A DNA stretch of 63,845 nt, the filler included, from Pseudovirgaria hyperparasitica (taxonomy: Eukaryota), in assembly GCA_010093815.1 (NCBI GenBank). It is 10 parts of 8 records of this genome, joined end to end, with 100 filler letters (N's around TTAATTAATTAA, not from the genome) between each part and the next. Parts side by side here need not be neighbours in the genome. Positions count along the whole stretch, not along the records: positions 22,293 to 50,335 come from ML996568.1; 9 more parts are not named here. One strand, given 5' to 3'. The stretch's first letter is position 1. Each line of letters opens with the position of its first letter. Made by a program: the position numbers and the translations under genes. The notes beneath the pieces are model-generated. The model saw nothing but the letters and a program-made list of their open reading frames with translations, was not told the origin of the DNA and searched no databases. Below, one piece after another: positions 27,301-59,800 of the stretch.

Positions 27301-27335
27301 GATTATTAGTTAAGGGCAGCCCTTAACTAATAATC
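27301..27335. repeat. Palindrome copy 3, at the end of family C ORF3
   Basis: GATTATTAGTTAAGGGC-A-GCCCTTAACTAATAATC, 17-bp perfect arms. Confidence 0.92.
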
Positions 27336-30287
27336 AGGCAGGTTTTTAGGCGCCTAATCTTAGTACTTAAGGTCGCGAGCTAGCTCCTAAAGAATCATGT
27401 CGCTTATCTTAGAGAGGTTAGATTCCTCCTCGTCGGATAGTTCATTAGGCCTCTTCTATCCGTAGAAGTTCTCTTCGACGTTATCTAGGCCCGCGTCGGG
27501 CTCGAATTTCTTAAAATTAATTAGCCGCTTAGTAGCGCGCGCCTCGTTAAATTCCTTCTAGAACGACCTATCCCTATAGACCAGCCTTTCCTACCTTACT
27601 ATTTTCTTAAAGGTCTCCACGAATACCCTCGAGCCCTCCTTAAACTAGGCGTCTACCTTAGCTTTAAGTTATTAAGGACTTGCGTTAAGCCACGTAGCTG
27701 CCTCTTCTTTCACCTCCTAGCTGTCCTATCTTTTACAGCCGACTAATACGTTACTAACGGCGTTAAAACTCGGGAGTTAAACTGCGACTAGGAAGGCAAA
27801 AGGAATCGCGCTATATTTATTAGAAAATCCTAACGGAGACGTAGGTCCCGGAGTTAAATTCCTATAAGCTGCTACGAGTTATTCCTATGTACCTATTTTA
27901 GGCACTTCTATTATCATGTAATTAGGGCCAATCGCGATATACCATAGAAGTATCATGCGTCTTCCACCCTTTACGGGACCCTAGGTGCCGTGCATTATTA
28001 GTAGGCTAGAGATACGTACTTTAAGGGACTAGTAGGGGACCGGGACGAAGGGACTAAATCGTTTCCTATCGTCCGTATTATAGATCTTATCGTTAATAGC
28101 CGTAATTATACCGTTTTGATTAACCCCCTCGCGGAGCTTAGCCTTCGACTACTATTCGTTTAAGAACTTATAGGAGCGGGGAACGATTATAGTATAGTCG
28201 TCACTTCGTTCGTCGTCGAGACTAATACTCCCCTAGATTATATTAAACCCGTATCTATCGCTGGGATCGAGGATTCGATTAATGGCGTTATCGAGATGCT
28301 TAAAACCCGTCTTATCGCCCCTATCCTAGGACTTCGCATAGTACGGGTACGAGATTAGATAGTAGTTAAGATCGGGCCGAAGAGCGATATAGGTGAGCTA
28401 GTAAAGTGGGCATTACCTAATAAACTATTAGATATAGGAGTGGTATATAGTTCGTAGCCAGCCGTAGTTCGATTTCTTATTAAATATGCGCTGGTAGTAC
28501 TTGTATATATTAAATTCATCCCTCGCGAGTTCTAGGATACTCTTATTAAGTATAGAGGTCGTCTTTTTAAGTGGCTCGAAGAGCCCTTTAATATTAATAC
28601 TTCCGGTACGTTCCCACTCGTCGAAGAGTTACCTACCTATTCTACCGTCCTCCTTCTAAATTACAAATGCGATACTAGTAAGGATGGTTTTAATATTAAT
28701 AACTTGCTTCGGGGTCTCTAGGGCCTAGTAATAATAGACACCTAATATCTCTATCGGATAAGGTGGCCGCGCGTACTTCGCGAACCAGGTATAGCGGTCC
28801 TTATAAACTTTAAGGGCCCCCACGTTATCTCTAAACTTATATACTATTTTAAGTCTCGCTACTAGGTTTAAGTAGGACACGCTAACGAGCATATTATTCT
28901 TTCTAGCCACGTCTTAGTAATACTTATAGTAGACTTTATACGGAACAGCCATGTTACCTATCTACGCTTTCTAGCGTACTAGTAGGGCTATTCCCTTAAT
29001 GCTCGTGAAATTCTTCTTTAATAATGTAGCTACCTTAAAAGTCTTCGTCACTAAAGGCGCGTATCGACACTTCTTAGGCTCGTCCTCTTCCTTAACTAAT
29101 GCTATCGTCTTAGGGTACGAACTAAGAACAACCGGGGATTGCCGTATAGGCGCCCCTGGTAATTACTAAGGGCCGGTAGATGAGGCACGCCCGCGAGTGG
29201 GTTTTATTAGCGTGGCTATAACGGGCACTAAAGACGTTCTTACATGGCCTAGTAAGGGACGTTTACTAGTGGTAGTGGGAGGAATACTTACTTTAAACGG
29301 ACGACTAGCTTCGAAGAGACGACGTGCTACTAAACTAGAAGGCGTACTTCGTGGAGGGGACTTTACCGCGGGCGTTACCTACGCTGGTTTTAGCGACGGT
29401 AAGGTCTAAGGCGGAGGCAATGCACTCATCTCTTTGATTTATAGGTAGTGTTCGACGGGCCTATAAACCATTCTACTTATCCGTGACTATTAACTAGCGG
29501 GGATAATAAGTCCCGTCTTATTATAGAACGTTAGTTTATTTTATTAGCTAGGGTAGTTTAAGAGTTACTAGAGAGATAGGCCGTCCTCGTTACTATCGCT
29601 AGCTAGGGCGGCATTAATATTAGAGCTCTAAAGATATGCCTTAATTCCCCTTCCCTTCTATCCCTGGCCGATTCGGGACTATAGGGATACGTTTAACTAG
29701 TTCCTCGCTCTCGCCCATGTTCGCACTCGTAAGAGCGCTACTAGCTTTTCCATGAAGTTCTATGTTTACTAGAGCTATCCGAGGGCGGATTAGAGTAACT
29801 AGCCGTCGTTATTAGGGAGGTCTTTTCGCTAGTTTTATAGGATTATATTTTTAGCTTTTAGGATACGGGAGTTAGTATCTCTTCCACGACGAATTATCTC
29901 GTGGACTTCTTTCGGAATAGAGGAGTTAATCTTTGCCTTACTATACCCTATTACGGCTTCTACTTCCTGGAAGAGGTCGACTATACTACTTAAGAGCTAT
30001 TCTACGAGGCTAGTGATGTGAAGGAGATTATTAAACATGTCTAGAATATAGTCCCATCGCTCTTACGGGTCCTGGATAGCGATAATTCGGTTAATAGTGG
30101 ACTTATTTATTTCTATAGCTTCTATAGTCTATCCGTGCGGAGTAGTAGATGGCCTTAATACCACGATAGCCGTCGATAGCCCTACTTTAGCACTTACGAC
30201 TCTTAACTAGGACCGCGTCTATCTTATTAGTGCTTAACGATCTTATAACTCTTTATAGGTAGGCGTTTTCTTCTTCGGCGGGGCTAT
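27306..30287 (-). pseudogene. Family C ORF3, ~990 codons, with a C-terminal PhyH-like 2OG-Fe(II) dioxygenase domain
   Basis: Frame conserved from a putative RIP-mutated start (M)APPKKKTPTYK (30287), through GWLRTIYHS, LISYPYYAK, TGFKHLD (HLD 28290-28298), I*GSISLDDERSDDYTIIVPRSYK and MHGT (H 27990-27992), to GRRMILLWY. Confidence 0.75.
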
Positions 30288-33200
30288 TATTATTATTAGT
30301 TCTATCGGCGAGTTACGTTCTAAGAAGAGGTGGTTTAAGCGAGGCGGAAGTAGAGGAGGAGGTTTTATTAATTAAGGAGGTATAGAGAGGTGTAAGAGGG
30401 AAGAGTTATATACTATCTTAAGTTCTCTTTTTATGCCTCCTCGAATACCGGGTATATGGTAATTTTTATAAATGATTCTTACTAACGGCCGTAGGCCCGT
30501 ATACGTGTCGAATCTATGAATGAATATATACTAGGTATATAGGAAATCTATGAATGAATGTATCTACCGGGTATATGGCGGAATCTATAAATGAATAGAT
30601 ACCGGGTATATTCTTATCCCCATGAGACTTCCTATAAGTATCTTTTTCTCTTATACCTCCTCCTTCTTTTCTTCCTTATTAGTTCCTAATGGGGCCCGTT
30701 CTATAGTAACGAAATAGGCCTTCGATGGGTAGGCTTCGATTATACGACCGGTTTTAATATATGGTAGGTAGAATTTCGTGTAAATGCCATTATGTCTTCT
30801 TTCGAGCATTACTTACTTTAATAATGGGTTTTATTATTTTATAGTAATAATAGGGTTTATTATCCTCTTTCGATGATAGAGTTTATCGTCATGAGACTAC
30901 TTTTATAAGTATCCCTTCCCTCCTTAAAAAAACTTCTGTCCCCTAGAAGGAGATATCGATTCTAGGGAAACGTAAATATTCCTCTCTATTGAAGTCTTAT
31001 AGAGTAGGAATCACTACTTCTACCCGGGTTCGTGTGGCGTCGTCGAGGTGTTCCGTAAGTTATTTATAATAGTTTTTCTTATCGCTACTCTCCTTATTTT
31101 CCTCGGTAATTCTTCTGATTGGTGGTCGTAAGGGCTCGTCGTGACTCTCGTTACTTATATTTCTCATGAAATATTTCTTTAACCTGTGGCTAGGAAACGT
31201 CCCTCTAAGCATGGCTCTATTAAGCTCCGCGAGCTTATAAGTGTAATTAAACACGGACTAGATTCTATATGGCCCCCTCTAATGCTACCTTAGCTTTCGC
31301 CCTATATCCTTCTATCGCTACGAGTCGTATAGAAGGATAATCGTATCGACTAGTAACGACTCTTAACGAAGGTAATGGTCGTTATTCCATGCCTCTCTTA
31401 ATTCCTTACGCGTTCGTGTCGCGTGGGCATGGGCCTCCTTAAGATCCTCGGATCTTCTCTTAAGTTATCTAGCTCGAAGAGCGAGTAAGTCGGACGTTAA
31501 TCGCACCTCGTTCTAAGGGAGCATTCGGAGCGACTCGAATTTAACTTTAATAGGTATGATTAGTTTATAGCCGAGCACGAGGTATACGGTATTATACCCT
31601 ATACTAGCACGTGTCGTTATTCTATCTACCTAGACGACCGTATAGAGGTGGTCGGGCTAGTTCTTGAATCCGCCATTAGTCATCTTCGCGAGAGTATTAG
31701 CGAGTAGTATAAAACTTCTCTTAATAATCCTATTTACTCGGGGATTATACATAGATATAACCTTCTAATAAATTCTATAGAGTCGGAGGAGCTCCTCTAT
31801 GGCATCTATATTTTCTCTACCACCGTTATAGGTGATTTTAGGAATGATTCTATATCTATAGATCACGTTCTTAAAGAGGAACTTTGCGACGACTATGGAC
31901 GTGGCCACCGTATATGCCTCCGCCTTAGTCCATCCGCTTAGCTATTCTTATATAGATACTACTTTACTATACCCCATGGAAGGTAGTAGTGCCGTTACGT
32001 CTAAGTATATTCTTTACCAAAGAACAGGCGTTATAATATAGTAGAGCCCTTTATTAAGACCTCCGAGGAGCTTACTTCGTCATTAATATTTATTATAGGT
32101 TTTCACGTGCTATCGCACGTCTCTACGTATACCTACCTACTAATACTTATCCTTAATCCTTCCGAGGGTCCCTTTGCTACCTCTATAATCTATCTCGTCG
32201 TGAGTAGTAGTAATTATACGCGCCCTAGTATTCGGATCCTTAATTACTCGTGTATATTAGCGATACCTATCTCCTCTCCGCTAGAGTATTTAGTCACGCA
32301 TAAGGAACTTTAGGTAGTCGGTTATAAAGGCCTTATACGCTCGGTCGGTTAGGTTAGTTAGCCTCTTAAGTATAGTAAGATACTTCGTAATCCTCTACTA
32401 TTTATCGCTATATTCATCTATTAAGGGAGACTTAATGGCGGTATAGTCGAGTGTCTCTATCGTGTAATCTCTCCTACTAACGGGCTTAATTAACGACGTC
32501 TCTAGCACGTCTATATATAGAGCTATATCCACGAACTCGTCTAGGTTAAAGGTAGGAACGTCTAGTGGTTCTTCTCCTTCGTATATCCGTGAGATACTAT
32601 TAGCGACTACGTTGCGCTTTCTAGGTATATACCTAACTATGAAGTTCTATATCTAAATCCACGCGAGCCACCTAGTAACGAGCGCCCCTAGTAAGTTAGT
32701 TACGGTGTGGTTAATTTAAGCGACTAGAGTATTCGCGTCTATTTCTATAATAAAGTGCGTGCTATAGAGGTATTACTAGAACTTCTATAACGCGTGGAGG
32801 AGGGCTCGGTACTCTAGCTTCATGGTGTCGTAGTTTCTCTTAGCTTTTAACTATATTCCTCTATTATACCGCGATAGCTAACGTTTATAATTCTCGTTCT
32901 CCTATATTAACGTAGCTCCCTATCTAACGTTACTAGAGTCTACTACTAGAATTATATCTTCCATACCTGTCCCGTACTATAACGTTATTAGTACGGGAGT
33001 AGTAGTTAGAGCTATCTTTAGCGCGTCTATCGAGGTCTACTCCTTGGCTATCTACTACTAGGCCGATTTATTCTTTAATAGTATAAATAGCGGCGATGCG
33101 ATAACAGCGTACCCGGGGATCTATATCCGGAAATATATATAAACGCCAAGGAAGGCTCGCACATTCATCGTGTTTTTATAGGGTTTCTAGTCCCTAATAG

Positions 33201-34575
33201 TAGTAACCTTTTTATTACTCGGTCGCCTCCCTTTAATATCGCAGACGTATCCTATAACGTTAGCGGCTTTAACACACCACTAAGTCTTCTTACTACTTAG
33301 GGCGTATCCAGCGCGCTCTATATCCGCGAGAACCTTATCCACGTTAATTAAATGTTCTAGGATATACCTACGAATTCTAGGCAGGGCCTCCTTAGAGTTA
33401 TATTTCGTCGTAGGTCCTTTAATGCCTAAGTCATCTAGAAATAGTAGAGCCCTCTCCGGGATGTATTCTTATATAATAGTTAATATAATCCTAACGAACT
33501 AAGCTACTAAATTAGTGGCCCCTTAAGGTAATATTATCCTATATAGTAATCCTAGGGGCGTTATAAACCCCGTTAAGTCTTGGTAATACTCTACTAATGG
33601 AATCTAATCGTATCCTAAGAAGAAGTCGGTAAATGTTAAGACGGCTATCCCCGTGAAGTACTCTAAGAACTCTTTATACGAGGGCGGCGTGGCCGCATTA
33701 TGAATAGTAACTCGGTTGATTTCTATCACCGAATTAATTAACCTATGATCTCGTTCCTTATTAGCTTCCTTCTTCTTTTCCACGAGAAAATAGGCGTTTC
33801 GATAAGGACTACTATAGGGCTCGAGCCTTCTACTATTAAGACGCTCTTTTAGGATCGTGAGTACCTTCCTATAAAGGGCTCTAGGAATGTTAAAGTTCTT
33901 AGCCTACTATATCTTATGTTCTACCGTTCGGATCTCCTACGGAGGTACCACCTCCTCGTTAAATTTACTAAGGTATAAGAATTTCTATGCTAGTACTTCC
34001 TCGCGATATAATAAGATTATATATAGTAACTTGAGTTCCGCGGGACGTAGCTCTATTCTAATCTTTAGCTAACTTATACGTAGAGGCGTTAGACGTGTTC
34101 CTAGCGGGATAGTTACCCTTCGAGGCTCTATTAGCCTATTAAACGCGTTAAGGCCTAGGTGGACGGCTGGAAGAAGTGCCTGCTATGCGATTGCTCGTTC
34201 ACGCTAGTCTAGATACCCTAATAGATTCCTAGGAACCTTTCGGTGGGCTTCGGAGTTATCCACGGGGTGTACTTTAACTCCCTTTCTTTTATATATGGTG
34301 GCTATACTAAATCCCTTTAATACCCCGGATGAATACCGTCTTTAGAGGCCGGTGGAGCCTACTATAAGCCGTTCTATTATCATGCCCTATTTATATACGA
34401 AGGCAGCGTACCTTGCCGCCGTAACTAGGGCGGCTAAGTCATCTTTTCTCGATAACCGAGTAACATTTTTAGGCCGGATTTTCTCGGAAAGTAACTCTAT
34501 ATAACTCATTTCTATATCTATATAAAAATATAGTCTATCCCCTTCGTTAGTGGGTTTACCGGACTCTATTTAGTG

Positions 34576-34614
34576 CGGATTATTAGTTAAGGGTAGCCCT
34601 TAACTAATAATCCG
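34576..34614. repeat. Palindrome copy 4, inside family C pol between protease and RT
   Basis: CGGATTATTAGTTAAGGG-TAG-CCCTTAACTAATAATCCG, 18-bp arms. Confidence 0.92.
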
Positions 34615-37294
34615 GCTCAACTCCGGCTTCCGGCGACATGCTCTACTATATAGTTAGTCTCTAGCCACGGAGTTACCCTTCTTCTCTAAGACTAGAATAT
34701 ACTCGTCCGGGCTGGTTTCAAAGGTTATACGTTCTTATCTATATACGGAGTAGACTATTAAGAGTACTTACCCGGAGGCTAACCTCTACACCGTAAGTAA
34801 GGCCTATCTAGCATATGGCTCCCCTAGGATAAGGTTATAATTAAGTTCGCTATACACGAATATCGAAGTAGCCGTAACGATCCGACCTATACGGATAGGG
34901 TATTACTATACTATTCCTACGAATAGAGTACTATACTAAGTAGCGCTAACTAAACTCGAGTTCTTTATATATGGTAGAAGCGAAGATATCGCTAGCCCGA
35001 GACGCCTCGTAGTATCTAGTCGAATACTATTTACCTATGCGCCACTATCGAATAGTACTATACTAGTCGCCCTTTTAGGACTAACTTCTACGGGGTACCT
35101 CGGATACTCGGCCACTAGCCTTACTATCCCTTCCTTAAGCTAATTAATATCTTATTACGTAATAGCCGTCCCCGTGGCATAGAGGGGTACTAATATATTA
35201 AGTTTATTTATCTCGGGAGCCATAGTATAGTCGTTTCTTCCTTTCTTCTCGGCTCTCTCTTCTCGAGCCTTACGGACCTCTCTAGCTATAAAGTCGGGGG
35301 CGCCCTTCTCAAATACCGCGCGACGTAAGTCGCTATTAAGGCTTAATAGTTCGCTAATAGTAATATTTATGGTTGTCCCTAGAACGCGCACTAGCCATGC
35401 TTCGCTAGCTTCTATACTTAGCCGCTATCCTTCGCGTAGATAGTTATTAAGCTTAACGCCTTAGATACGTGCCTTTTAACTAGGATTTAGGCCATCCCCT
35501 TTATCTATCTTATCCTCCGGCGCTATTAGCTCTTATTTAGACGTTCCCTAGTCGCTACTCTTCTCGCCGTCCTCCTATTCCTCGATAATCCTTATATACT
35601 ACCCTTCACGCATTCCGCGGAGACGGGCGATCTTTCTTTCCTTAGTATGATTAGGTGTACTCTTCGTGATCCCCCTTCTAGATATTATAAGTATAGCGGG
35701 CTCTTCTAGGGCCATCTCCTCGTGGATATATCTATTACTAGCCACGTTAAAGCGTTCGTGGAATTCTATATATCTATCTTTCTTACTCTCGGGCGACGTG
35801 ACTTCTTCTTCCGAATTACTATCCGCCGAGGCCTGGTAGAGACCCTTCGTAGGTTTTATACTAATACTATATACCAGCACTCCCTATGAAGCGTTAATGT
35901 TTACTATAGACGTGGAAACCTTCACTCCTCCTCCGTACTAGCTTAGGCCGTTTTAAACCGTTACTACGTAGTTCCGGATAGCTTATAGAGTAGCTTATAG
36001 CCCTACTAAGGAGGGTAGTAATAGGATTTCTTCTCTATTCGCCCTAAAACGCCCTCGGAATACTCACACCCCGTTAATATTTAGTAATCCGTCTCTAATA
36101 TATCCTACTATCTCCGGACATCTATATATTAGGTAATCTTCTCCGTACGTGATGCATACGATCGGTCTTCAAGGCCTATCCTAGGCTATAACACCTTCTT
36201 AGGAGTCTCGGGTAGAGACGTATTCTCTATTCTATATATAATTCTATGGATAAACTTGCGTTAGTTCTATAGGTATGCCTCGTGCTTAGGGATGTGCTAA
36301 AAGATTTAGCCTTCGCGCCTACTAGTTAATAATAGCCGAAAGTAGCTTAGGTTCGTACTTCTTAAGGGATAGGAATAAGGGATTAGAGGTAAAGTAGGAC
36401 TTTATCTTAATTAACGTGAGGTCTAGTTTACTAAATCTTTCTACTATCTCGTTAAACTTATCCAATCCTAGCGTGACGTGTACTACGACTAGAGAGGGGT
36501 GGTTAAATTCATTAGTTCTTCTTTCTTCATATAACTACTCTTCTAAGCCGGTCTTCTTACTCCCTATCTTTAATTTATAGTATATGGCTATGGCTAGCTC
36601 TTGTGCGGCTAAGTGCTTATTAATACGAGCTAGTTCCTTAAGTGCTCTAGCCTTTCGTGATACGAAGCTATAGATAATTACCTAGTCGTAACTATATGCT
36701 TCTATCGTAAGTTAACATTTCTCTATAGCCCGAGCCTTAAGACTATTAGGTAGCCCTTCTAGGAAGAGCTCTATTCGCGAATACGAGCTTAGGCTTCCTT
36801 TAGCCGTAAGTTTCTCCGTAATAACATGATACCGGGAGTAGTATATGGGGAGAGAGTAGGATGGGTCTACTTTAACCATTTCCACGTATTTTCGGATAAA
36901 GTAGATGGTGCCTTCCTCGAGGGTAGAGTTAAATAGAGAGAATTCCTTTAATAATTCTTCACGTAGCGTGGCCCACTACTATTTCTAAAACCCACTTATT
37001 CCTTTAATAGTAGGACGGAGATGGTCCTCGTAGTATGACGGTAGGGAGGTTATCTTCTTATTAGGCGGAACTTCGTAGTTTATATACATGTCCTCGTACT
37101 TCCGAAGGAAGGCCGTGATGTTTATTCCTTTAAAGCGCTCGGGGGCTAGGGTAGGTAGAGGTACTATCCTTCCTTATCGCGTAAATACTACGAAGAAGTC
37201 AAGCATCTCTCTATGAGTTACTAGGTCGTTGTTTTAAGCTCCTATCGTACTATTACTAGTAGTAGGTGTGCTAGTAGAGACGCTGGGGGTAAGG

Positions 37295-37322
37295 TTATTA
37301 GTTAAGGGATTACCTTAACTAA
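37295..37322. repeat. Palindrome copy 5 (degenerate), inside family C gag
   Basis: TTATTAGTTAAGG-GATTA-CCTTAACTAA. Confidence 0.75.
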
Positions 37323-37805
37323 AGGTTGGCCCAATGCGCCTACCTATAACACCTATCATCCCTTCTCTATGTTAACTAATCCCTTTATAAGGTGAACTAT
37401 TACTATCGTCTTCATTAATATAAGGTTCACGGTACTCTACTTATATTATTATCTTCGTGTGAGGCGTTCCTAAAGTGGTATACTCGTGTGGCCGTATTTA
37501 TGAATGACAGCTATAGTAGCACTAAACAGGTTATATTTGTCGTTTTTGAACTCTTCTTTACTACTTCATCTAGCCCTGTTTTATATTCTATTCCCCTAAG
37601 ACATTTTCGAGTCGCGCTATCACCCGTATTAGTATGCGCATGCTTTTTACGGCTTCTTTTAAGAGGCTAGCCCCTAGCGACTCCGGACTCCCTGTTTTCC
37701 GGACTCGTGGCTTTAATCTAGTAAGTCTAGACTACCTTATTAGGCACGCTATATACTTCCCCTAAGCTAGTTTCGGAGTCCTAATCTCCCCCTATAAGTT
37801 CGTAG

Positions 37806-37822
37806 TCCGGGTACGACCTCTA
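37806..37822 (-). promoter_or_regulatory. Family C primer-binding site, tRNA-type (possibly tRNA-Gln)
   Basis: Plus strand TCCGGGTACGACCTC[T]A reads like a tRNA 3' end ...ACC-U-CCA after one RIP reversion. It lies 4 nt inside the 5' LTR. Confidence 0.5.
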
Positions 37823-38909
37823 AAATTATGGTAAGCTATCGCCACGTGTGTCCCTTAAGTAAATAGCTATATTCCTAGTATAGTAGTCACGACGAACTCA
37901 CAAGCATCTCTCCCAGGTATTATAAGTTCTCTTTAAACGCACGACTTCTTATTAGTTCTCTTTTACGATAGGACGGGTCTATATAATACTCTTAATCAAT
38001 TCTTTAATAGCTAAGCCTAATAATCAATACCCATAGAGGCCCATGAACGTAAGGAAAGGTTAAATAGTCGAATATTAGTGATGGGGGAAGCGTGTGGAGC
38101 AGAATGACCGAGGAAAACGCCCTCCTTAAATATACAATGAGCCATGTAATCGAGCTAGGGACACATACATGTAGGGCTGTAGGAGCGGCCTTCCACACTA
38201 TTTTACGTAAGAAGAACGTAACTAGATACTATTAGACCTTTTTAGACTTAGTTAGTCTAGGCTAGAAGAGAATATCTAAGATTATAAATTCTAACGCGTC
38301 GGTTTTAATACGGATAGATTTAGTCGGGTTAAAGTATACTAGTAATAGGGTAGTTATAAATACCTCTTTGATTTTCTTAAAGGAGGCCCTTTCGCCTTCT
38401 AATAATTCTATAGGCTATAATTTAATATTATACTATTTCTATCTACCGCGGACCGTAATAGACGAATCTATAGTAGTAGTATACGCGTTAAGTAGTGCTA
38501 CTAGCCGGGAGAAATTGTTAGGACGGGAACCATAACGGACCTATATAGACTATTCTAATCCATGTAGCCACGTAGTGGCTAGAGCTAGGTTAAGTTAGCT
38601 AAGTTAAGCGAGGTTACTATATAAGTAGACCGTATAAACCGATTCCTACTCGTTAGGAATTAACCTCGTATAAGAGTAAGATTACTCTATAAATATATTC
38701 CTATATCTCTCTATGAACTATTAGACTACTATCCTATATCTTTACTCTTTATATTTTAATTCCTCTCTATATAGCACGACGGTAGCTTATAGAGATAGCT
38801 CCTACTACGCGCTATAATACCCATAGTACTACCTTATACGAGAGACTCTCTCTAAATCTAAACGAAGAGAATAGTCTCTCTATAACCACCTCTACTAATA
38901 AGTATACCC

Positions 38910-40177
38910 TATAGACTATCGTACTAATAACTAGTACGGTATTCCATATAACCGTGGAAGATTACCTAGATAATAAGAAAGGAGTCCATTATACTCCATC
39001 GCGGTCTAGTTTATACTATACTAGACCTATCCTTACTATAAGACTAGACCCTATTAATATTAATGAATTAATTTATTAGAACTAACTAACATTAACCACG
39101 CCTTATAATAATATATATACTAAGCTATACACGGAGAGGTAGTATTAGACTTAGCTCGAGTAGTAACTTCGCGAACTTAATAAAGCGTAAGAATAAACCG
39201 CTAGACTCGAAGCCGTACTACGCGCTTTAGTACTAGTAGTAACTAATCTATACTAATATAGACTAACTTAAGCTAAAATAGTCTAACTAAGTCTATTACT
39301 ATCCTAGTTACCTTAGCCTAAGAAACTACCTTACTTTAACGGTAAAACTAGAAGGAGCTTTTACGAATGGGCTTACTAGTATAGCTAATTCTTCTATCTA
39401 TTTACGAACGATAGTAATAAGATTAGATTCGTATAGAACTATCTAGACCTAATACTATCTAAACGTTAGATAGTATATCGAATTAAACACCCTAAGGATA
39501 CGTATAACTAGGATACGTTCACCGAATTCCTTCTTTAATACTTTAGTAATAGAGCTAAGCGACGCGAATAGGCTTAGAGCCATATCTTTAAGACTTAATA
39601 GTAAGAGAGATAATCCCCGTTATAACTCCTCGAATACCTCCGACCTCTTTAGAGAGAAGCTAAGGAAGATCGTATAGTTCGATAATATAACGACTTTAAA
39701 AGGTCTCTTAACCCGAGTGTAAAGGAACGCATTAACCTTATAACGTCTATCTCTACTAACCTTTAGGTACTCGCGAATCTTGTAGAATAATATTAGCGTA
39801 TAATAAATAACTAACGTCGTATAGGCGCACGACTATCCCTATTAATCTAATCCGATATAAAATTATCTAAAGAGGACCGGTTTAGTAATAGATCGCGCGG
39901 AATACCTCGTAGACGCTACTACTCTACGAACTTAAGAAGACGAGGCCCGTACCGCGGATCTTTCTACTAGTCGATATATTAAGATGCGAGAAACGACTTA
40001 TATAAACGACCTAAAGTCACCTACTATACCTATAGTAGGATAGGCTATATAGTACTCGAGTGCCGCTTAGGGAAACCACCGAATACTAATATAGATACTA
40101 AGTTAGTTATATACTATAAGTACTAGTAGCTAGGATATATCGCGCCTAACTACCTAGTATACGATATAAAAAACTAA
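38910..40177 (+). pseudogene. Family B gag (start approximate), ending at a -1 frameshift heptamer AAAAAAC (40168-40174)
   Basis: PKKLPYFNGKTRRSFYEW motif (~39317) and CCHC knuckle CYKCQQPGHIAPNC after de-RIP (~40112-40153). Confidence 0.75.
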
Positions 40178-43100
40178 CTATCTACGAGGAACCCTCGTAA
40201 CTTATAGATATAACTAAAATAGAGGGATAACTAGCTAACTAGTATATTAAACTATAGGCTAGGCCTATCGAGGTCCCTCGTAGATAATATTAGACCATAA
40301 TACTTAATAGCGGTTTAGCTACTAATATTATATTAACTTAACGAGCACGAGAACTTAACGTCGATATTTAAGTACTAATAGATACTACCTTCTATAGTAT
40401 TAATAGTCCTATTAAATTATAGGGTACCTATACTATTAAATATAGTATCTAGGATAGCGGGGGGAAGTAGAAACCCTACTACTTAACCTTTATTATGGTA
40501 GATAGTCCCTTTAATATAATTCTCGGTATACTATAGCTCGAAAAATATAACCCGAAACTAGACTTTATCTAGAAAACAGCTAGCTAGCACATATACCTAC
40601 TATAATAGAACCTAGTATAGCTAATCAACGACGAATAATTCTAGAAGGACTACGAAAAGGTAATCTCCGCTATCTACGTCCTCTTACTTACTTAAAATAG
40701 AGAGCTTAGTATTAAAGTAGACGAAAATCTACTATATTAGTATAAAATATACTAATATATCGCGTTAGCAATCGACTCGTCCAAATTACCTTAATACTAA
40801 TCTACTAACCTTACTATTAACCTCGAAGACGGTTAATAACCCCTATATAGACCTATCTACCCTCTATTAGAACCCGAGCTATAGGTCCTCCGAGAATATA
40901 TTAAAAAGAACCTTATATAAGGATAGATTAGGCCTAGTATATCCCTAGCTAGAGCTCTAATCCTCTTTATAAAGAAGAAGGATAGAAGTCTCTATCTATA
41001 TATTAACTACTATAGCCTAAATAATATTATACGAAAGAATCGTTACCTACTACCTCTTATCTCCGAGTCTATTAATAGACTAGGGCGCGTAAAGATCTTT
41101 ACTAAGCTCGATCTATATAACACCTACTACCGCTTACGTATTAAGAAGGGCGATAAGTAGAAAACGGCGTTTAGGACCCGTTATAGATACTTCGAGTATA
41201 TAGTAGTCCCTTTTAGACTAACTAACGCGCTAGAAACCTTCTAAGCATATATTAATAATGTACTAGTAGGCCTACTCGACACGACGTATATTATATACCT
41301 CGATAACATTCTTATCTTCTCTAATAATAAAGAAGAATATATCTAGCACGTACACGTAGTCCTAGATAGGCTAGAAAAATATAAGCTATATATTAAGCTA
41401 TCTAAATACGAGTTCCACTAGGACCACGTTAACTTCCTTAGCTTCGTTATTACTAATTAAGATATAACTATAGAAAGGGATAGGGTCGCTACTATTATGG
41501 ACTGGCCTAAACTAAAATCGGTTTAAGATATACGTGTCTTTATTAGATTCGCTAATTACTACTAAAAATTTATTAAGCATTTCTTCCGGCTAGTAGCACC
41601 GCTTAACGCGTGTACTACTACTATAGATTCGTCTATTACGGTCCGCAGTAGATAGAAATAGTATAATATTAAATTATAGTCTATAGAATTATTAGAAGGC
41701 GAAAGGGCCTCCTTTAAGAAAATCAAAGAGGTATTTATAACTACTCTATTACTAGTATACTTTAACCCGACTAAACCTATCTACGTTAAAACCGACGCGT
41801 TAGAATTTATAATCTTAGATATTCTCTTCTAGCCTAGACTAACTAAGTCTAAAAAGATCTAATAGTATCTAGTTACGTTCTTCTTACGTAAAATAGTCGA
41901 TATTAAGACTAGATATACTATCTATAACTAAGAGCTACTAGTAATAGTAGAGTCGTTTAAATAGTAGCGATATTATCTTAAAGGTGCTATATATAACGTT
42001 AAGTTACTAACTAATTACTATAACTTAAAGGGGTTTATAAGCACGACGGTTTTAAACCGTCGATAGATCTAATAGGCTAAGTAGCTTATAAACTTTTACT
42101 TTATAATCTACTATTAACCTAGAAGTATAAACCTAGCTAATAGAATATTAAGAAGACCTAACTATAAAGAAGGCGCCTAGGATTATAGTGGCTATAGGGT
42201 CCTAGAGTAGCTATAGGCCTAACTCTTAAGGACGAGGTTAGATTTTAAGTTATTAGGCGATTAGTAAGATACTAATATTAATACTAGTAATTAAATCTCT
42301 AAGACCGAAGCCGGTAACTAAAGACACGGTACTAAAGTCCCTAGTAGACCGTTTATTAGCGCTGTCGGGAAGGGCAATAATGCCCGGCGTAAATATCTAA
42401 TTAACCTCGCCTAGTTAATCGTGGATCTATAGAAGATAGATCTAATAGTTTTAAAGTTGCGTAAAATATAGTAAGATAGGTTATTACGGACTAAAGTAGA
42501 CTATAAGTAGACCTTTATAGACGGCTTGCTTCACTACGATAGAAAGTACTATATACCAATAGGTAACGCGCGATTTAACGTAGTTAGCCGATACTATAAC
42601 GCTAACCTAGTAGGATACTTTAGGTATATACGTACCCTAAGCTTAATTTATTAATACTATTTTTAGAAAGATATACCAAAGTACGTCGAAGAACAGATAG
42701 CTACTTATCCAATTTATTAAAGAACGAAGGCCCCTAGATATAAGCCATATAGGAATTTATAGCCTCTTTTAGCCCCCCTCTTTATATAGAAAGACGTTAC
42801 TATAGACTTTATAGTTAACTTACCTCTAAGCGAGATACTTAGAATAAGTTATAATTCTATTCTTATTATCGTGGATAGACTTATAAAGATATCTAGGTAT
42901 ATCCCGGTATAGAAGACGATTACATCTAAAGAACTAGCGTAGGTGTTCTAGAACGAGATTATTAAGGTCCATAGTATACTAAAAAGGATCGTTACGGACC
43001 GAGGAAGTACCTTCACGTCTAAATTCTAGACGTTATTCTATAAAATAGTAAGTATAAATAGAAATATATCTATAGTATTTTATCCTTAGACGGATAGCTA

Positions 43101-43900
43101 GATAGAGCGATAGAACTAGACGCTCGAGGCCTATCTACGCGCATTCTATAATTTCGAGTAGAACGACTAGGCCTCCCTACTAAGTATAGTAGAGTTCATA
43201 TATAATAATAGTCGTTATAGTACGATAGATATTATACCTTTCTAGGCGAACCTCGGACGTAGTCTAAGGATAGGTTTTAAGTCTTAGACGGTCTAATTTA
43301 ATCGAATAATAGACGTAAACGTCCACGCTTAGGAATTAGTAATTAAAATCTTCGAAACCGCACGTAACTATCGCGCTATAATCTAATAAGTAAACGACTT
43401 GTATACGAAGTACTATAATAGATTAGCTAAGGATTAGATGTATAAGAAGGGCGATAAGGTCCTTCTTAACGTCCGTAATATACGAACGTCGCGAGTAAAT
43501 AAGAAGCTTAATTATAAAATGGCTGGTCCCTTCCGAATCAAACGTTATATCGGTATAAGAGCCTACGAGCTCGACTTAGGAAGCGATATAAGAATCTATA
43601 ACGTATTCTATATCTTACTACTCGAAAGATTTCGACCTAACGTATATAGCCGCACGAACATATAGTTATACTCTATTATACCCTAAGATAGACTAGACGT
43701 ATTTAAAGTAGACTATATTATTAAACATAGGATCGATGAAGACGGTGTTTAGAAATATAGAATCCGTTAGAAGAACTACACTAAGGACGAGGATACCTAG
43801 GAACTAGCGGTATATATCTTAAGTTCTATAATAGCTATATATAAGTAAAAGATATAGAATAGCGTATTATTAATATAAGTATAGTAACATCGCGGTTATT
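40170..43900 (+). pseudogene. Family B pol: protease, RT, RNase H, integrase, chromodomain (end approximate)
   Basis: [25 protein letters not shown] (41296), TDALEF (41791), integrase core, AGPFRI, and chromodomain FKVDxIIKHR...YRIR*KNYTKDEDT*E (~43700-43805). Confidence 0.9.
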
Positions 43901-44499
43901 ATAAAAAGAAGAAGGATACCGTAGAGAACGAAGTACTAAACTAGGAAATCTAGACGCGCACTAGGAAAACTCTATATAGTAGCCCTATAATTTAAGTATT
44001 ATATAGTTACTAGACACGAAGAAAGCGTAAATAACTATTTTAGGAACGCGACGCGATATACCATAATAGAATAATATAGAAGAGTCTAGAATAGACTAAC
44101 ATGGACCATTATACACGAGAAAAACATAGGACTAAGAACCTAAAAAAAGGTACCCTACTATAGAATTAAACTCTTAACACGAAATATAAAAGGTTAGAGT
44201 ACCCGAACTAATAACTACTAGGCTACTAGTTTAGGTACTCTAATAGAATTTATAGAGATAAACTAATTTATATACGGTACCCACACTTAGGTAACTTAAG
44301 GAAAATTAGAATATAGAAACCGATAGTTATAAGCTAAGCGAGCGCATATATAATATCGTTAAGTTAAGAATTAAATTATTAGAAACTAGCCGATAGGTAT
44401 CTAAATAGTCTAAAAAGGACTAAAATAGATAAAAGCTAGGTAAATAGAGCCGGCGCGCACTACCTATAGTAGATCTAGAATATATAGAGCCAGGCATAG

Positions 44500-45640
44500 A
44501 GCTAATATATAGAGCTAGAACTATAGAGCTACTCCTCTATCTTATTATCCGTTCTAATCTCTAGTATAGTTCTCTCTAACTATATAATATAGCGGCGGAG
44601 GACGATAACCTTAGCCTCTAGAGTAATAACCTAATCCGTTAGAGCCTAGAGGGAAGAGTCTTAAGCGCCGGAGCGTAGCGACTAGGTCTAAAGTTAGCTA
44701 ATACGATCTAGAATAATCTAGAAGGGAATATATACCCTCTTATAAGGCGACTTAGAGGGAGAAATAGTAGACCTCTTACGAGATCCGTTAGTAGCGCGAG
44801 ACGGACGGAGGGGGATAGAGTAAATCCTCTCTACGGCCTCTATAGCTAGGATAGACTCTCTAGAATAGATAGCCTAGGCGCTAGAGATCTCGCGGCGGCT
44901 AGAAAAATCAATAGGTATTAAAAATAATTAACGTGCTTATAACTTATACTTTAATAACCTCTAGAAAGAGCTTATAGCGCTCCCTAAACTCCCTCTTTAT
45001 AGTAGGTAGGCGGCTATAAGAACCCCCGAGGGTCTCACGGACGCGAAGATCGTTATATATATCTTATATATATATAGGAACCTAAGAATGTATTAGCGCG
45101 GACCACTTTAGATCATACTAGATTAAGATAGCCTATTATACTTACCTATAGATAAGTCTTACTAGTTATAGTATAGCGGTAGTAGCGGGTAGATAGAGTA
45201 AAGATAGGGCGTATAGACCTATCGCGGTTAGTAGAGTAGTAGCTAATACTAGAGTTAGAGCGAAAGAGATATTTAGAGCCGGCCGTATAGCCCTTAATAT
45301 ACTTATAGTATATTAAACCGTAGTTCGCTATTTTCCTATAGCGTAAACTNNNNNNNNNNNNNNNCGGCGTGCGCTTTAGAGCGAGAGGAGAACCTACGAC
45401 TACTTTATCTATAAGTTTAGTACTAGGATTACCTAGATTAGAGCGACTAGTAGCTATATTAGTAGTAGAGGTAGTAGTAGTAGTAGCCCTAGCTACTCTC
45501 TTCTCCAACTTAGAGCGCGCCTTTATACTACCACAATAGATAGACTTCTTAGCCAGCGTAGCCGGGGAGGAGGCGATACCTTTAGAGCGAGTCTTACAAG
45601 AGAAGGAGGTAGGCTTAGAGATAGGACTAGTATTAGATAT
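44500..45640 (-). pseudogene. Antisense, intron-containing Cys-rich gene in the family B 3' region (3' end approximate)
   Basis: The frame of the tracked ORF 45146-45508 extends up to 45640. Intron 45145-45082 (GTAAGT...GCTAAT...TTAG) joins ...KTYL* to VP... Confidence 0.6.
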
Positions 45641-48600
45641 CTATATATATACGTTAGCTAGAGATCTAAGGAAGGAATATTCGTCTACCCTTAACGGCGA
45701 TTAACGAAGCTAAATTAGTAACCGTAATAACGCGAATAGATTATATAGGACCGGTTCTAATAAGAATAGACCACTATAGACCCTTCTAAACCTAAACTAG
45801 GGAAGATAGTATATAAATTAATAACTTACCTTAAGAGCGAGGTAGATATACTAGAGAATAAAATTAAAGGCGAGCGAAGCTAAATATATACTTAACTAAA
45901 GTAGCGATTATATATTCTAGGTAGTAGCTATAAAGTAAGGGATAAGCGTGTACATAAACTAATAAAAGTAAACTAGAATCTCGAGTTTACCTATATTAAG
46001 GATAGTTATAACGTTATAGAAACTTAGTCACGGATATATAGGTATACGTTAGATTATAGAGACTTAGAATTATATATACTTAAGTGCTTTAGGGCGAAGC
46101 ATAAAAAGAAGAAGGATATTATTAGGACGGGAACTATAACGGACCTATATAGACTATTCTAATCTATGTAGCCATATAGTGGCTAGAGCTAGGTTAAGTT
46201 AGCTAAGTTAAGCGAGGTTACTATATAAGTAGACCGTATAAACCGATTCCTACTCGTTAGGAATCAACCTCGTATAAGAGTAAGATTACTCTATAAATAC
46301 ATTTCTATATCTCTCTATGAACTATTAGACTACTATTCTACGTCTTTACTCTTTATAGAAATACTTAATAAATTTTCGGTAGTAATTAGTAAATCTAATA
46401 AAGACACGTATATCTTAAACCGATTTTAGTTTAGACTAGTCTATAATAGTAGTAACTCTATCCCTTTCTATAGTTATACCTTAATTAGTAATAACGAAGC
46501 TAAGAAAGTTAACGTAGTCCTAGTGGAACTCGTATTTAGATAGCTTAATATATAGCTTATATTTTTCTAGCCTATCTAGGACTACGCGTACGTGCTAGAT
46601 ATATTCTTCTTTATTATTAGAGAAGATAAGAATATTATTAAGGTATACGATGCACGTTATATCGAGTAGATCTACTAGCGCGTTATTAATATACGCTTAG
46701 AAGGTTCCTAGCGCGTTAGTTAGTCTAAAAGGGACTACTATATACTCGAAGTATCTATAACGGGTCCTAAACACCGTTTTCCACTTATCGCCCTTCTTAA
46801 TATATAGACGGTAGTAGATATCGCGTAGATTAAGCTTAGTAAAGATCTTCACGCGCTCTAGTCTATTAATAGACTCGGAGATAAGAGGTAGTAGGTAACG
46901 ATTCTTTCGCGTGAGATTATTTAGACTATAGTAGTTAATATATAGACGGAGACTTCTATTCTTCTTCTTTATAAAGAGGATTAGAGCTCCGGCTAGAGAT
47001 ATACTAGGTCTAATCTATTCTCGCGTAAGGTTCTTTTTAATATATTCTCGGAGGACCTATAGCTCGGGTTCTAATAGAGGGTAGATAGGTCCGTATAGGG
47101 GTTATTAACCGTCTTCGAGGTTAATAGTAAGGTTAGTAGATTAGTATTAAGGTAATTCGGACGAGTCGATTACTAACGCGATATATTAGTATATTTTATA
47201 CTAATATAGTAGATTTTCGTCTACTTTAATACTAAGCTCTCTATTTTAAGTAAGTAAGAGGACGTAGATAGCGGAGATTACCTTTTCATAGTCCTTCTAG
47301 AATTATTCATCGTCAACTAGCTATACTAGGTTCTATTATAGTAGGTACATACGCTAGCCAGCTGTTTTCTAGATAAAGTCTAGTTTCGGGTTATATTTTT
47401 CGAGCTATAGTATACCGAGAATTATATTAAAGGGACTATCTACCATAATAAAGGTTAAGTAGTAGGGTTTCTACTTCCCCCCGCTATCCTAGATACTATA
47501 TTTAATAGTATAGGTACCCTATAATTTAATAGGACTATTAATACTATAGAAGGTAGTATCTATTAGTACTTAAATATCGACGTTAAGTTCTCGTGCTCGT
47601 TAAGTTAATATAATATTAGTAGCTAAACCGCTATTAAGTATTATGGTCTAATATTATCTACGAGGGACCTCGATAGGCCTAGCCTATAGTTTAATATACT
47701 AGTTAGCTAGTTATCCCTCTATTTTAGTTATATCTATAAGTTACGAGGGTTCCTAGTAGATAGTTAGTTTTTTATATCGTATACTAGGTAGTTAGGCGCG
47801 ATATATCCTAGCTACTAGTACTTATAGTATATAACTAACTTAGTATCTATATTAGTATTCGGTGGTTTCCCTAAGCGGCACTCGAGTACTATATAGCCTA
47901 TCCTACTATAGGTATAGTAGGTAACTTTAGATCGTTTATACAAGTCGTTTCTCGCGTCTTAATATATTAACTAGTAGAAAGATCCGTGGTACGGGCCTCG
48001 TCTTCTTAAGTTTATAGAGTAGTAGCGCCTATAAGGTATTCCGCGCGATCTATTACTAAACTAGTCCTCTTTAGATAATTTTATATCGGATTAGATTAAT
48101 AGAGATAGTCGTACGCCTATATAATGTTAGTTATTTATTATACGCTAATATCGTTCTATAAGATTCGCGAGTACCTAAAGGTTAGTAGAGATAGACGTTA
48201 TAAGGTTAATATGTTCCTTTACGCTCGGGCTAAGGGATCTTTTAAAGTTATCGTATTATTAAACTATATAATCTTCCTCGGCTTCTCTCTAAAGAGGTCG
48301 GAGATATTTAAGGAGTTATAATAGGGATTATCTCTCTTACTATTAAGTCTTAAAGATATAGCTCTAAGCCTATTCGCGTCGCTCGGCTCTATCGCCGAAG
48401 TATTAAAGAAGAAATTCGGTAAACGTGTTCTAGTTATACGTATCCTTAGGGTATTTAATTTAATATACTATCTAATATTTAGATAGCGTTAGGTCTAGGT
48501 AGTTCTATACGAACCTAATCTTATTACTATCGTTCGTGAATAGGTAGAAGAATCGGCTATACTAGTAAGCCTATTTATAAAAGCTCCTTCTAGTTTTACC

Positions 48601-48913: not shown

Positions 48914-50335
48914 TGTAAGAATAGGGTTATTGGATAGTAGTGTAGTTAGATAGAACAATAGGGTGTATTCTATTATAGAACGAATTACTACCGAACTCTT
49001 TCGGTAGAAATCCGAGAGTATATACATAAAGGGACGCCGATCTATCTAGTATATAACTATTTACCGCCCTTCACGTTACCTCCTAACTCTATTAGCTAAG
49101 GTATATATAGGTTAGGTCCTACCTAAGGCTAAGTCCTAATAATTATCCCTTCCCTCTAGGAAGCTACCCTTAGCAACCTAGATCATTATCTATCTCTATA
49201 TCCCTATCCTAAGTCTCGTAAGACCTTAGTCGTTCTCTACGCTTCGTCTTAGATACTTACCGATATTTACTAATCTAAGATTTATATAAGCGTTTTCCTA
49301 ATAAACTAGATTTTATCTATCTTAACTTCTTATATAGGTGAGATTACCTAATTAGGCCTAGCGTATCACGTGATGTAATTAGGTAAGCCCGGGTGCTACC
49401 TATATTAAAATCTTTTCTTAGAAATATTCCTTTCTTTAAAAAACTTCTTAACTCTTTATAGAGTTTTTTAGATTATTAGATATATCACCCGATCCTTATA
49501 GACATAGATTTATATAGATTTACTATAATTTAGTACGATTTACGTAATTTACTAATTTTCGTACCGTCCTTAGCTAGTAATAACATAATTCGTAATAATC
49601 CGTATAAATTAATAATAATCTTAATATGGTTTCCCGAAATCTCGACGCTCTAAAGTAATTAGTACGGAAATAGGCGCCTTCGAATAATCCCTATCTTATA
49701 TACGTTACCGACATGTCGAAAGCCATTAATCTACCCCGACCTAGGCCGGGCTCTAATAATCTAGCTATATATTATTATAGTTATCGCTTTCCGTCGTATA
49801 TTACTTACGGTAGTACTAAATCTATAATATATAGTACTTATATAACTAAGAAGCGTTATTACTTATAGGTATTTAAGTAAGTTCGAAGAACTTTACATAG
49901 ATTTACTTATATCGGTATAGATTACTACTAGGCCTCTAGTAACCTCTACCGATAAGAAGCGTGGTACTACTAATCGCAACGCCTTAGAGAAGGCTTTCTA
50001 TAAGCTATATACCTAAGGTAAGTACAGGTAAGGGTTACGCCTAGGAGTATAATTCTAATAAGATCCGTAAGGATTTATCGGAATCTACTATAGCTATTAT
50101 TACCGCGATTACTAGGTAATATCATTTTTCTTAAATCGTTATAGATTCTTACTAATATATATTAATCTCTATAATAGTGCTAAAATCTCTACCACTTCGG
50201 ACTTCTTTCTATATACTAGTAATATTAGAATTCCTAGAAAAGGTTCTAGTAAAAAGGCTAAGGTTCCTTCCTCGCGCGTGCTAAAGAGCCGTAAATTTAG
50301 GGAAGATAGCTCTAATCTAGAAGTTTCTATACTAA
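48914..50335 (-). mobile_element. Family A 3' end (3' LTR 48914-49141, PPT, long 3' region), inserted in gag of the host B copy
   Basis: TG at 48914, a 228-bp LTR, and PPT complement ATTATCCCTTCCCTCT at 49142. Confidence 0.9.
49713..50335 (+). pseudogene. Putative antisense, intron-containing Cys-rich gene in the family A 3' region
   Basis: ATG at 49713 (MSKAINLPRPRPGS), a Tyr-rich (de-RIP Cys/His) stretch ending YSTYITKKRYYL*, a candidate phase-0 intron at 49869-49920 (GT...TAG), and a further GTAAGT donor near 50018. Confidence 0.45.
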
Positions 50336-56871: not shown

Positions 56872-59800
56872 TCCTTCATATTACTAGCCTCATAGAATAG
56901 CTCTTAAGTAGTATAGTTAACCTCTTCTAGGAAGTAGAAGCCATAATAGAATATAGTAAGGTAAAGATTAACTCCTCTATTCCGAAAGAAGTCTACGAGA
57001 TAATTCGTTATAGAAGAGATACTAACTCCCGCATCCTAAAAGCCAAAAATATAATCCTATAAAACTAGCGAAAAGACCTCCCTAATAACGACGGCTAGTT
57101 ACTCTAATCCGCCCTCGGACAGCTCTAGTAAATATAGAACTTTATAGAAAAGCTAGTAGCGCTCTTATGAATACGGACATAGGCGAGAGCGAGGAACTAG
57201 TTAAACATATCTCTATAGTCCCGAATCGGCTAGGGATAGAAGGGAAGGGGAATTAAGGTATATCTTTAGAGCTCTAATATTAATGCCGCTCTAGCTAGCG
57301 ATAGTAACGAGGACGGTCTATCTCTCTAGTAACTCTCGAACTACCCTAGCCGATAAAATAAACTAACGTTCTATAATAAGACGGGACTTATTATCCCCGC
57401 TAGTTAATAGTTACAGATAAGTAGAATGGTTTATAGGCCCGTCGAACACTACCTATAAATTAAAGAGATGAGTATATCGCCTCCGCCTTAGACCTTACCG
57501 TCGCTAAAACTAGCGTAGGTAACGCCCGCGGTAAAGTCCCCTCTACGAAGCACGCCTTCTAGTTTAGTAGTATATTATCTCTTTAAAGCTAGTCGTCCGT
57601 TTAAAGTAAGTATTCCTTCTACTACTACTAGTATACGTCCCTTACCGGGCCATGCGAGAACCTCTTTAGTGCCCGTTATAGCTACGCCGATAAAACCTAC
57701 TTATGGACGTGCCTTATCTACCGGCCCTTAGTAATTACTAGGGGCGCCTACACGATAATCCCCGGTTATTCTTAGTTCGTACTCTAAGACGATAGTATCG
57801 GTCGAGGAAGAGGACGAGCCTAAGAAGTGTCGATGCGCGCCTTTAGTAACGAAGACTTTTAAGGTAGCTATATTATTAAAGAAGAATTTCACGAGCATTA
57901 AGGGAATGGCCCTACTAGTATGCTAGAAAACGTAGATAGGTAATATGGCTGTTCCGTATAAAGTCTACTATAAGCATTACTAAGACGTGGCTAGAAAGAA
58001 TAATATACTCGTTAGCGTGTCCTACTTAAACCTAGTAGCGAGACTTAAAATAGTATATAAGTTTAGAGATAACGTGGGGGCCCTTAAAGTTTATAAGGAC
58101 CGCTATACCTAGTTCGCGAAGTACGCGCGGCCACCTCATCCGATAGAGGCATTAGGTATCTATCGTTACTAGGCCCTAGAGACCCTAAAGTAAGTTATTA
58201 ATATTAAAACCATTCTTACTAGCATTATATTTGTGATTTAGAAGGAGGATAGTAGGATAGGTAGGTAACTCTTCGACGAGTAGGAACGTACCGGAAGTGT
58301 TAATATTAAAGGGCTCTTTGAGCCACTTAAAAAGACGACCTCTATACTTAATAAGAGTATTCTAGAACTCGCGAGGGATGAATTTAATATGTATAAGTAC
58401 CACTAGCGTATATTTAATAAGAAATTAAACTACGGCTGGCTACGAACTATATACCACTCCTACATCTAATAGTTTATTAGGTAATACCTACTTTACTAGC
58501 TCACCTATATCGCTCTTCGGCCCGATCTTAACCACTATCTAATCTCGTACCCGTACTATGCGAAGTCCTAGGATAGGGGCGATAAGACGGGTTTTAAGTA
58601 TCTCGATAACGCTATTAATTGAATTCTCGATCCTAGCGATAGACACGGGTTTAATATAATCTAGGGGAGTATTAGTCTCGACGACGAACGAAGTAACGAC
58701 TATACTATAATCGTTCCCCGCTTCTATAAGTTCTTAAATAAATAGTAGTTGAAGGCTAAGCTCCGCGAGGGGGTTAATTAAAACGGTATAATTACGGCTA
58801 TTAACGATAAGATCTATAATACGGACGATAAGAAACGATTTAGTCCCTTTGTCCCGGTCCCCTACTAGTCCCTTAAAGTGCGTATCTCTAGCCCACTAAT
58901 AATACACGGCGCCTAGGGTCCCGTAAAGGGTGGAAGACGTATAATGCTTCTATAGTATATCGCGATTGGCCCTAATTACATGATAATAGAAGTGCCTGAA
59001 ATAGGTATATAGGAATAACTCGCAGTAGCTTATAGGAATTTAACTCCGGGACCCACGTCTCCGTTAGGATTTTCTAATAAATATAGCGCGATTCCTTTTG
59101 CCTTCCTAGCCGTAGTTTAACTCCCGAGTTTTAACGCCGTTAGTAACGTATTAGTCGGCCGTAAAAGATAGGATAGCTAGAAGGTGAAAGAAGAAGCAGC
59201 TACGTGGCTTAACGCAAGTCCTTAATAACTTAAAGCTAAGGTAGACGCCTGGTTTAAGAAGGGCTCGAGGGTATTCGTGGAGACTTTTAAGAAAATAGTA
59301 AGGTAGAATAGGCTGGTCTATAGGGATAGGTTGTTCTAGAAGGAATTTAATAAGGCGCGCGCCGCTAAGCGGCTAATTAATTTTAAGAAATTCGAGTCTA
59401 ACGCGGGCCTAGATAACGTCGAAGAGAACTTCTATAGATAGGAGAGGCCTAACGAACTATCCGATAAGGAGGAATCTAACCTCTCTAAGATAAGCGATAC
59501 GATTCTTTAGGAGCTGGCTCGCGACCTCGAGTACTAAGATTAGGCGCCTAAAAACCTACCTAATTATTAGTTAAGGGCTGCCCTTAACTAATAATCCGGG
59601 CTAAGGTTTACCCGCGCCGAGAGGTTTACTAGGGGCGCATTTTATTCGTATTAAGGTCTTTCTTTTAGGCGTTCTTCACACGGTTTCTCACACGGTTACT
59701 ATACTACTAAGAGTAGTAGTTCTATGGGCCGGGGAGGTATATATAGAAGGCCGCTCCTGCAGCCCCACATGTATATATCCCTAGCTCGATTATATGGCTT

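Follow-up and report, generated by a model that had tools for sequence, protein, structure and literature searches.

Botrytis retrotransposons carry an extra gene, brtn, reportedly described in 2011 by Zhao et al. It lies antisense between pol and the 3' long terminal repeat (LTR) of a chromodomain-bearing fungal Gypsy element (PMC7264820, available text) and is found in chromodomain-bearing Boty-like elements (PMC8365987, PMC4227169, likewise). Plants have the aORF-3R genes, represented by gene23 of maize Grande and by genes of rice RIRE2, Silene Retand and bean PvRetro13. According to the text available of the same source, these genes are antisense, sit between pol and the 3' LTR in most copies and have their own upstream promoter, and the GENE23 protein is nuclear; their function is unknown, and that of antisense accessory open reading frames (ORFs) in general is treated as an open question (PMC7264820). 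Here we describe a gene of the same layout in element B, a chromovirus of the fungus Pseudovirgaria hyperparasitica (assembly GCA_010093815.1). The stretch of DNA analysed, 63,845 nucleotides and hereafter the window, is made up of nested fungal retrotransposons, altered by repeat-induced point mutation (RIP), in a gapped scaffold. Between pol and the 3' LTR of element B, antisense to gag-pol, a protein-coding gene was very probably once present.

Element B has the anatomy of a Ty3/Gypsy chromovirus: reverse transcriptase, RNase H, integrase and chromodomain follow in this order between two LTRs, accompanied by a polypurine tract and by a 5-bp target duplication, GAAAT, on both flanks. The two LTRs differ at 11 positions, all of them transitions. 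Pfam recognized RNase H (E 5e-12), SH3 (8e-13), the chromodomain (7e-4) and, weakly, the integrase zinc finger (0.054), all in a single frame. The region of about 2.2 kb that had been predicted between the chromodomain and the 3' LTR was confirmed. Its (CA+TG)/(AC+GT) ratio of 0.15 marks a heavily RIP-mutated family, and its part 44154-46119 occurs in a single copy within the window.

Table 1. Coordinates of element B, of its antisense gene and of two further antisense genes (window positions unless a contig is named)
Feature	Positions	Strand	Basis and remarks
Element B, full-length Ty3/Gypsy chromovirus, RIP-damaged	38516..46357	+	two 238-bp LTRs, target duplication
5' LTR of element B	38516..38753	+	LTR comparison
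pol of element B: RNase H, integrase zinc finger (weak), SH3, chromodomain	41701..43830	+	Pfam
Polypurine tract of element B	46102..46115	+	sequence
3' LTR of element B	46120..46357	+	LTR comparison
Intron U, 189 nt	45641..45829	-	in the 5' untranslated region or the first coding intron; position of the start codon uncertain
N-terminal exon part, Ser/Thr/Lys/Arg-rich	45365..45640	-	stop-free; strongest periodicity of the gene (p 2e-10)
Assembly gap, 15 N	45350..45364	.	true length >15
Tyr-rich exon part	45146..45349	-	candidate Cys cluster at 45310-45152, spacing 2-9-28-2-6
Intron A, 64 nt, phase 0	45082..45145	-	splice motifs
Middle exon, charged, starts Val-Pro	44948..45081	-	own periodicity non-significant (p 0.19)
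Putative intron C, 49 nt, phase 2	44899..44947	-	periodicity frame and zipper; donor read as RIP-damaged
Last exon, basic Ser/Pro/Arg/Lys patch, then zipper	44500..44898	-	3' end approximate; 11 in-frame RIP-type stops
Five-heptad leucine zipper in last exon	44547..44651	-	heptad test, 0/200 shuffles
Element C antisense exon, intact ATG at 49713	49713-50335	+	just inside the 3' LTR of another chromovirus, to which it is antisense
L001 antisense six-Cys and coil gene, intact, intron-split	L001 3735-4311	+	in 3' region

The minus-strand frame that had been predicted from position 45640, together with its Tyr pattern, was present as described, except that its long exon is broken by an assembly gap into 92 and 67 codons. 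Contigs from two runs of one sample run on past the gap edge with at least 29 other letters, so the gap exceeds its nominal length and any in-frame continuity across it is putative. Intron A was found as proposed, with GTAAGT, GCTAAT and TTAG, and joins Leu-stop to Val-Pro; likewise, intron U displays GTAAGT, GCTAAC and TAG. The third intron, expected at about 44949-44898, gave the wrong frame, and the phase-2 intron C fits both the periodicity and the zipper frame. The donor of intron C reads as a RIP-damaged GTRAGT, and a variant at 44917, in 69% of the depth, creates a branch-like TAAC within it. The minus strand of the 3' region has two GTAAGT words, the plus strand none.

The case for coding comes from the codon structure of the modelled exons. 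Base composition was uneven among codon positions in the four exon parts (p 2e-10, 1e-3, 0.19 and 0.018), and no periodicity was seen in intron U, in the stretch upstream or in two spacers (p 0.45, 0.26, 0.99 and 0.53). With TA dinucleotides removed, to avoid the bias that comes from choosing stop-poor frames, the pooled periodicity of the four parts gave a chi2 of 24.0, which none of 300 best-frame shuffles reached. When three parts were used for training and the fourth for testing, the modelled frame was chosen among the three same-strand frames in all four cases (three of four with TA removed). The frame that periodicity prefers switches at intron A and again near 44950-44900. In the last exon, the modelled frame contains 11 stops as against 9 and 13 in the alternatives, and thus was not chosen for its openness. 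This same frame, first spotted by eye ahead of the tests, encodes a zipper, absent from the original prediction, with hydrophobic residues at all ten a and d positions (Val or Ile at a, Leu at d), a score that none of 200 shuffles attained; two of the Ile codons read Val in 57-81% of the depth. Both the periodicity and the heptad pattern are therefore beyond chance.

The 3' region is not confined to one copy. All 30 bins of 43900-46200 were covered by 7368 and 2566 contigs in two of four runs, both from one sample and with depth not equal to copy count, and the variants were almost only transitions. Such deep cover by many contigs identifies the 3' region as a feature of the family rather than a one-off insertion. 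Copies also differ by short duplications at 44462-44519, near the 3' end of the antisense gene, and by insertions at 44183 and 45865, in the spacer and the putative promoter region, indicating subfamilies. As a separate matter, we considered an env-like ORF on the sense strand and rejected it: the longest plus-strand open run is 74 codons, GTAAGT is absent and the heptad score is 0.56.

All six candidate Cys codons of the Tyr-rich exon read Tyr in element B. Among the 40 variant rows listed out of 145, the sole codon of this exon is the second Tyr of the last YY pair, which is Arg in 73-76% of the depth; this agrees with the RC.RC reading of the original prediction and shows that RIP can convert Arg codons to Tyr in element B. 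TAY codons, where Y is a pyrimidine, are nonetheless enriched, amounting to 13 of 68 in this exon versus 12 of 268 elsewhere in the gene (p 2e-4, or 7e-4 when the Arg codon is left out). The spacings Y-x2-Y and Y-x2-Y-x6-Y equal the Cys half-sites of an unmutated relative, L001, described below. By chance the half-motif alone is commonplace (54 of 100 shuffles), and the six-Tyr pattern, which was fitted post hoc, arises in 11 of 1000. On balance we consider the Tyr-rich exon likely to have been Cys-rich originally.

The spacing of the candidate cluster does not suit the type that had been proposed. Canonical Zn2Cys6 clusters are spaced 2-6-(5 to 12)-2-(6 to 8), and with 2-9-28-2-6 the label 'Zn2Cys6-like' fails. 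The sole intron-like piece in the 28-residue linker measures 31 nt, and its removal would shift the frame. In Pfam, neither the Zn(II)2Cys6 profile (PF00172), most of whose signal is stripped by Tyr in place of Cys, matched the element B frame, nor did DUF3716 (PF12511) match the element B protein.

An intact counterpart was obtained by a pattern scan of metagenome contigs, which returned two loci, L001 and L002, 97-98% identical to each other and belonging to an unmutated chromovirus whose integrase shares about 40% identity with that of element B. The L001 exon contains C-x2-C-x6-C-x8-C-x2-C-x7-C, followed by a GTGAGT intron and a coil-like exon; L002 ends inside the antisense gene. One more GTAAGT, near 3705 of L001, could be the sign of an intron further upstream and of a different start. 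Pfam scores for the L001 exon were sub-threshold both for DUF3716 (E 0.071, 13.5 bits against a cut-off of 22) and for Zn_clus (E 0.22), its nearest Atlas clusters were unnamed ascomycete proteins (0.91), and its predicted fold had a mean predicted local distance difference test (pLDDT) score of 50.8. A word search with this exon yielded only two near-identical proteins from 11 candidates, and in a MAFFT alignment of the L001 and element B exons the Cys residues did not align with the Tyr. L001 also carries a second gag copy (1-2870, minus strand) immediately behind the first element, an arrangement that suggests a tandem array, and short repeated palindromic words at 3199-3319.

A second such exon was found within the window, in the chromovirus element C. 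Here the six-Tyr spacing is near-canonical, about 2-7-7-2-6, and the exon has the same Leu-stop-Val end as that of element B; donors lie at 49877 and 50018, and the exon is cut by a scaffold gap. The window contains the full six-Tyr pattern exactly twice, each time with a donor no more than 45 nt away and antisense in the 3' region of a different chromovirus. Two such cases were found in none of 100 shuffles and one case in two of 100.

What might the gene have done? We give roughly even odds to its having been a RIP-killed accessory gene that was a regular part of the chromovirus family and encoded a nuclear dimer controlling transcription of its own element. Introns survive reverse transcription when they are antisense to the genomic RNA, and this orientation would explain why those of element B persist. 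It would likewise call for a separate promoter on the 3' LTR side, which we place in the 3' LTR itself or in 45830-46119. Transcripts starting there would lose at least three introns by splicing. The product, of about 340 residues or more, would begin with a basic N-terminus of low complexity, followed by a probable metal-binding module rich in Cys and by a charged middle, and would end in a parallel zipper. The basic N-terminus, the probable metal module, the second basic patch and the parallel zipper together suggest a nuclear, nucleic-acid-binding dimer. Such a homodimer could govern transcription of the element by binding to its DNA or chromatin, control of its own transcription being the simplest role for an element-borne factor of this kind.

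A number of results speak against this reading, and some of them concern the cysteines. None of the six candidate Cys codons appears among the 40 of 145 variant rows listed, and in these rows Arg and Tyr codons are linked three times, Cys and Tyr once. In the pol genes of the window, only 8 of 254, 14 of 246 and 18 of 326 Tyr columns align to Cys; such Tyr columns hold about 30% Tyr, 11-17% His, 7-10% Arg and 3-6% Cys, so the per-codon prior for Cys is low. Linked CG/TA double changes among copies were observed at rows 43997/8, 44426/7, 44779/80, 44821/2 and 45180/1. CpG sites are thus also driven to TpA, and any reversal of RIP must allow Arg for Tyr. It is conceivable, if rather unlikely, that the gene was real and had no zinc cluster: its Tyr codons would mostly be damaged Arg or His codons, and its product a strongly basic zipper protein that bound RNA or DNA and worked in the way of a retroviral accessory factor in RNA export or in nuclear import of the integration complex. 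The frequency of CG-to-TA double changes, the Arg/Tyr linkage just mentioned, the Lys and Arg content of the first two exon parts (17 of 92 and 13 of 68 residues) and a 28-residue linker unlike Zn2Cys6 all accord with such a protein. Arg conversion does not suffice, however. The other exons contain 12 TAY and 17 CGY codons, and at this ceiling the six CGY codons retained by the Tyr-rich exon account for about 4 of its 13 TAY; nor would this explain why the Tyr spacings coincide with the L001 half-sites.

The protein might instead have acted for its element against the defences of the host, be it RNA silencing, DNA methylation or the targeting of RIP, rather than regulated transcription. The presence of analogous genes in at least two families of the window and in L001 could reflect a selective pressure shared by elements in strongly defended hosts. 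We regard this role as improbable, given that the family was thoroughly RIP-mutated regardless, that direct evidence for it is lacking and that no fungal precedent was among the papers listed by our literature search.

There are further adverse results. Exon limits and motif were fixed after the sequence had been viewed. When the leave-one-out comparison was extended to six frames, the modelled frame was chosen in three of the four parts only (two with TA removed). A codon model trained on pol ranked that frame first in none of the four parts, a model without power here: two of two length-matched pol controls failed as well. The splice motifs are weak on their own, two such introns arising in 27 of 500 dinucleotide shuffles, and a looser intron-like pattern matches 19 times across the window; stop-free runs of at least 96 codons occurred in 13 of 500 shuffles and of at least 68 codons in 130. 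Homology searches with the element B protein, weak because RIP changes many residues, found no homolog. HMMER returned from 1.84 billion proteins one chance-looking match, P0003, which we rejected as a Tyr/Ser/Gly repeat stretch in an 854-residue protein with no Cys at the aligned positions. Pfam and PDB gave no match, a word search with the last exon identified no homolog (0 of 62), and the Atlas gave none for the Tyr-rich exon (recognition 1957, best 0.86, uninformative); a word search with pol found two distant proteins, without context. Nor do the antisense genes resemble one another: the L001 gene has no detectable similarity to the element B region, and BLAST detected none between the exons of elements C and B. 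In a viral collection, scans targeted at the clade of element B found no match, and a general integrase motif retrieved eight loci, none with the Cys motif; these loci are more distant than L001, and seven of the eight have less than 1.8 kb beyond the match. The full six-Cys motif was thus present in one of the 10 loci examined, L001 and L002 included.

Taken at face value, the chance frequencies of the splice motifs and of the half-motif, the lack of homologs and the inconclusive codon model would fit TA-rich sequence in which RIP had produced Tyr runs and intron-like words without any gene. We hold this to be quite improbable in view of a periodicity that withstands the removal of TA, of frame shifts that fall at introns and of a zipper whose frame is not the one poorest in stops. 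Instead, the original prediction of a spliced antisense accessory gene is supported by frame-consistent periodicity, splice signals confined to the minus strand, the zipper, the multi-copy cover and the intact counterpart in L001. Least probable of all is a captured host gene fragment, an antisense passenger without a role for the element, which would account for introns with ordinary fungal splice signals and for the lack of mutual similarity among the genes of B, C and L001 but not for the position, orientation and architecture shared by three families, the multi-copy cover or the failure to find a host homolog.

Other features of the window concern its nested elements. Element B is inserted within a minus-strand copy of its own family, and at 23917-48916 this minus-strand copy is broken by an 11-kb element, by the full-length element B and by further B copies; the family thus inserts into itself. 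The 11-kb element (26783-38197, LTRs of about 373 bp) lies within the minus-strand B copy. Its 3' region is found twice in the window (27155-30025 and 56872-59800, 93% identity) and has peaks of codon periodicity (-log10 p 3.0-4.3) that hint at one more hidden gene. At 9195-10247 and 25058-25697 there are tandem repeats of about 441 bp, one set being inserted in a B copy. The strongest three-base periodicity of the whole window is at 3301-3600 (-log10 p 9.3).

Annotations of fungal LTR elements usually stop at gag-pol. Were spliced accessory genes in antisense regular parts of chromoviruses, these elements would encode their own regulators, and many orphan Cys-rich 'hypothetical proteins' in fungal repeats would be element genes. 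A tentative generalization, less likely true than not, is that many ascomycete chromoviruses are three-gene 'complex' elements whose spliced antisense gene encodes a fast-evolving, dimeric, metal-binding nuclear protein. This protein would recognize the element that encodes it and either activate that element or protect it from host silencing, much as accessory factors serve retroviruses. Should this be true, the long-linker cluster and five-heptad zipper of element B would represent a distinct, undescribed branch. The element B copy is dead, with no relative among those found here that is both close and intact, and as such adds an example and a new domain arrangement rather than a test; the intact L001 gene offers the better experimental handle.

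In its place and orientation, the element B gene matches accessory genes of the aORF-3R and brtn type. The comparison with Botrytis brtn concerns position and strand. Neither 'antisense' nor 'zinc' occurs in the text available of PMC3248453, and a search made mostly outside subscription journals found no description of Cys-cluster or zipper products of such fungal antisense genes. The layout is already known from Botrytis, and the product looks undescribed. The plant aORF-3R genes share the layout but belong to plant elements, and neither a Cys cluster nor a leucine zipper is described for them in the available text (PMC7264820). Gal4-type Zn(II)2Cys6 proteins (PF00172) resemble the element B product in having half-sites C-x2-C and C-x2-C-x6-C, candidates in the latter, ahead of a coiled coil, and differ from it in their middle spacings, in its Tyr codons, in a zipper some 170 residues past the cluster and in the absence of a Pfam match. 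HBZ of human T-cell leukemia virus type 1 (HTLV-1) is a basic zipper protein made from a spliced antisense transcript that starts on the 3' LTR side. The HTLV antisense promoter is located in the 3' LTR (PMC7264820, available text). HBZ and the element B product are alike by analogy only: the 25 residues before the first heptad of the latter contain two Arg but lack Lys, which excludes it from the basic leucine zipper (bZIP) proteins. The L001 gene, finally, is much shorter than that of element B, is spaced 2-6-8-2-7 rather than 2-9-28-2-6 and is dissimilar in sequence, yet the two agree in place, strand, basic N-terminus, Cys cluster (a candidate in element B), an intron soon after it and a helical, coil-like exon.

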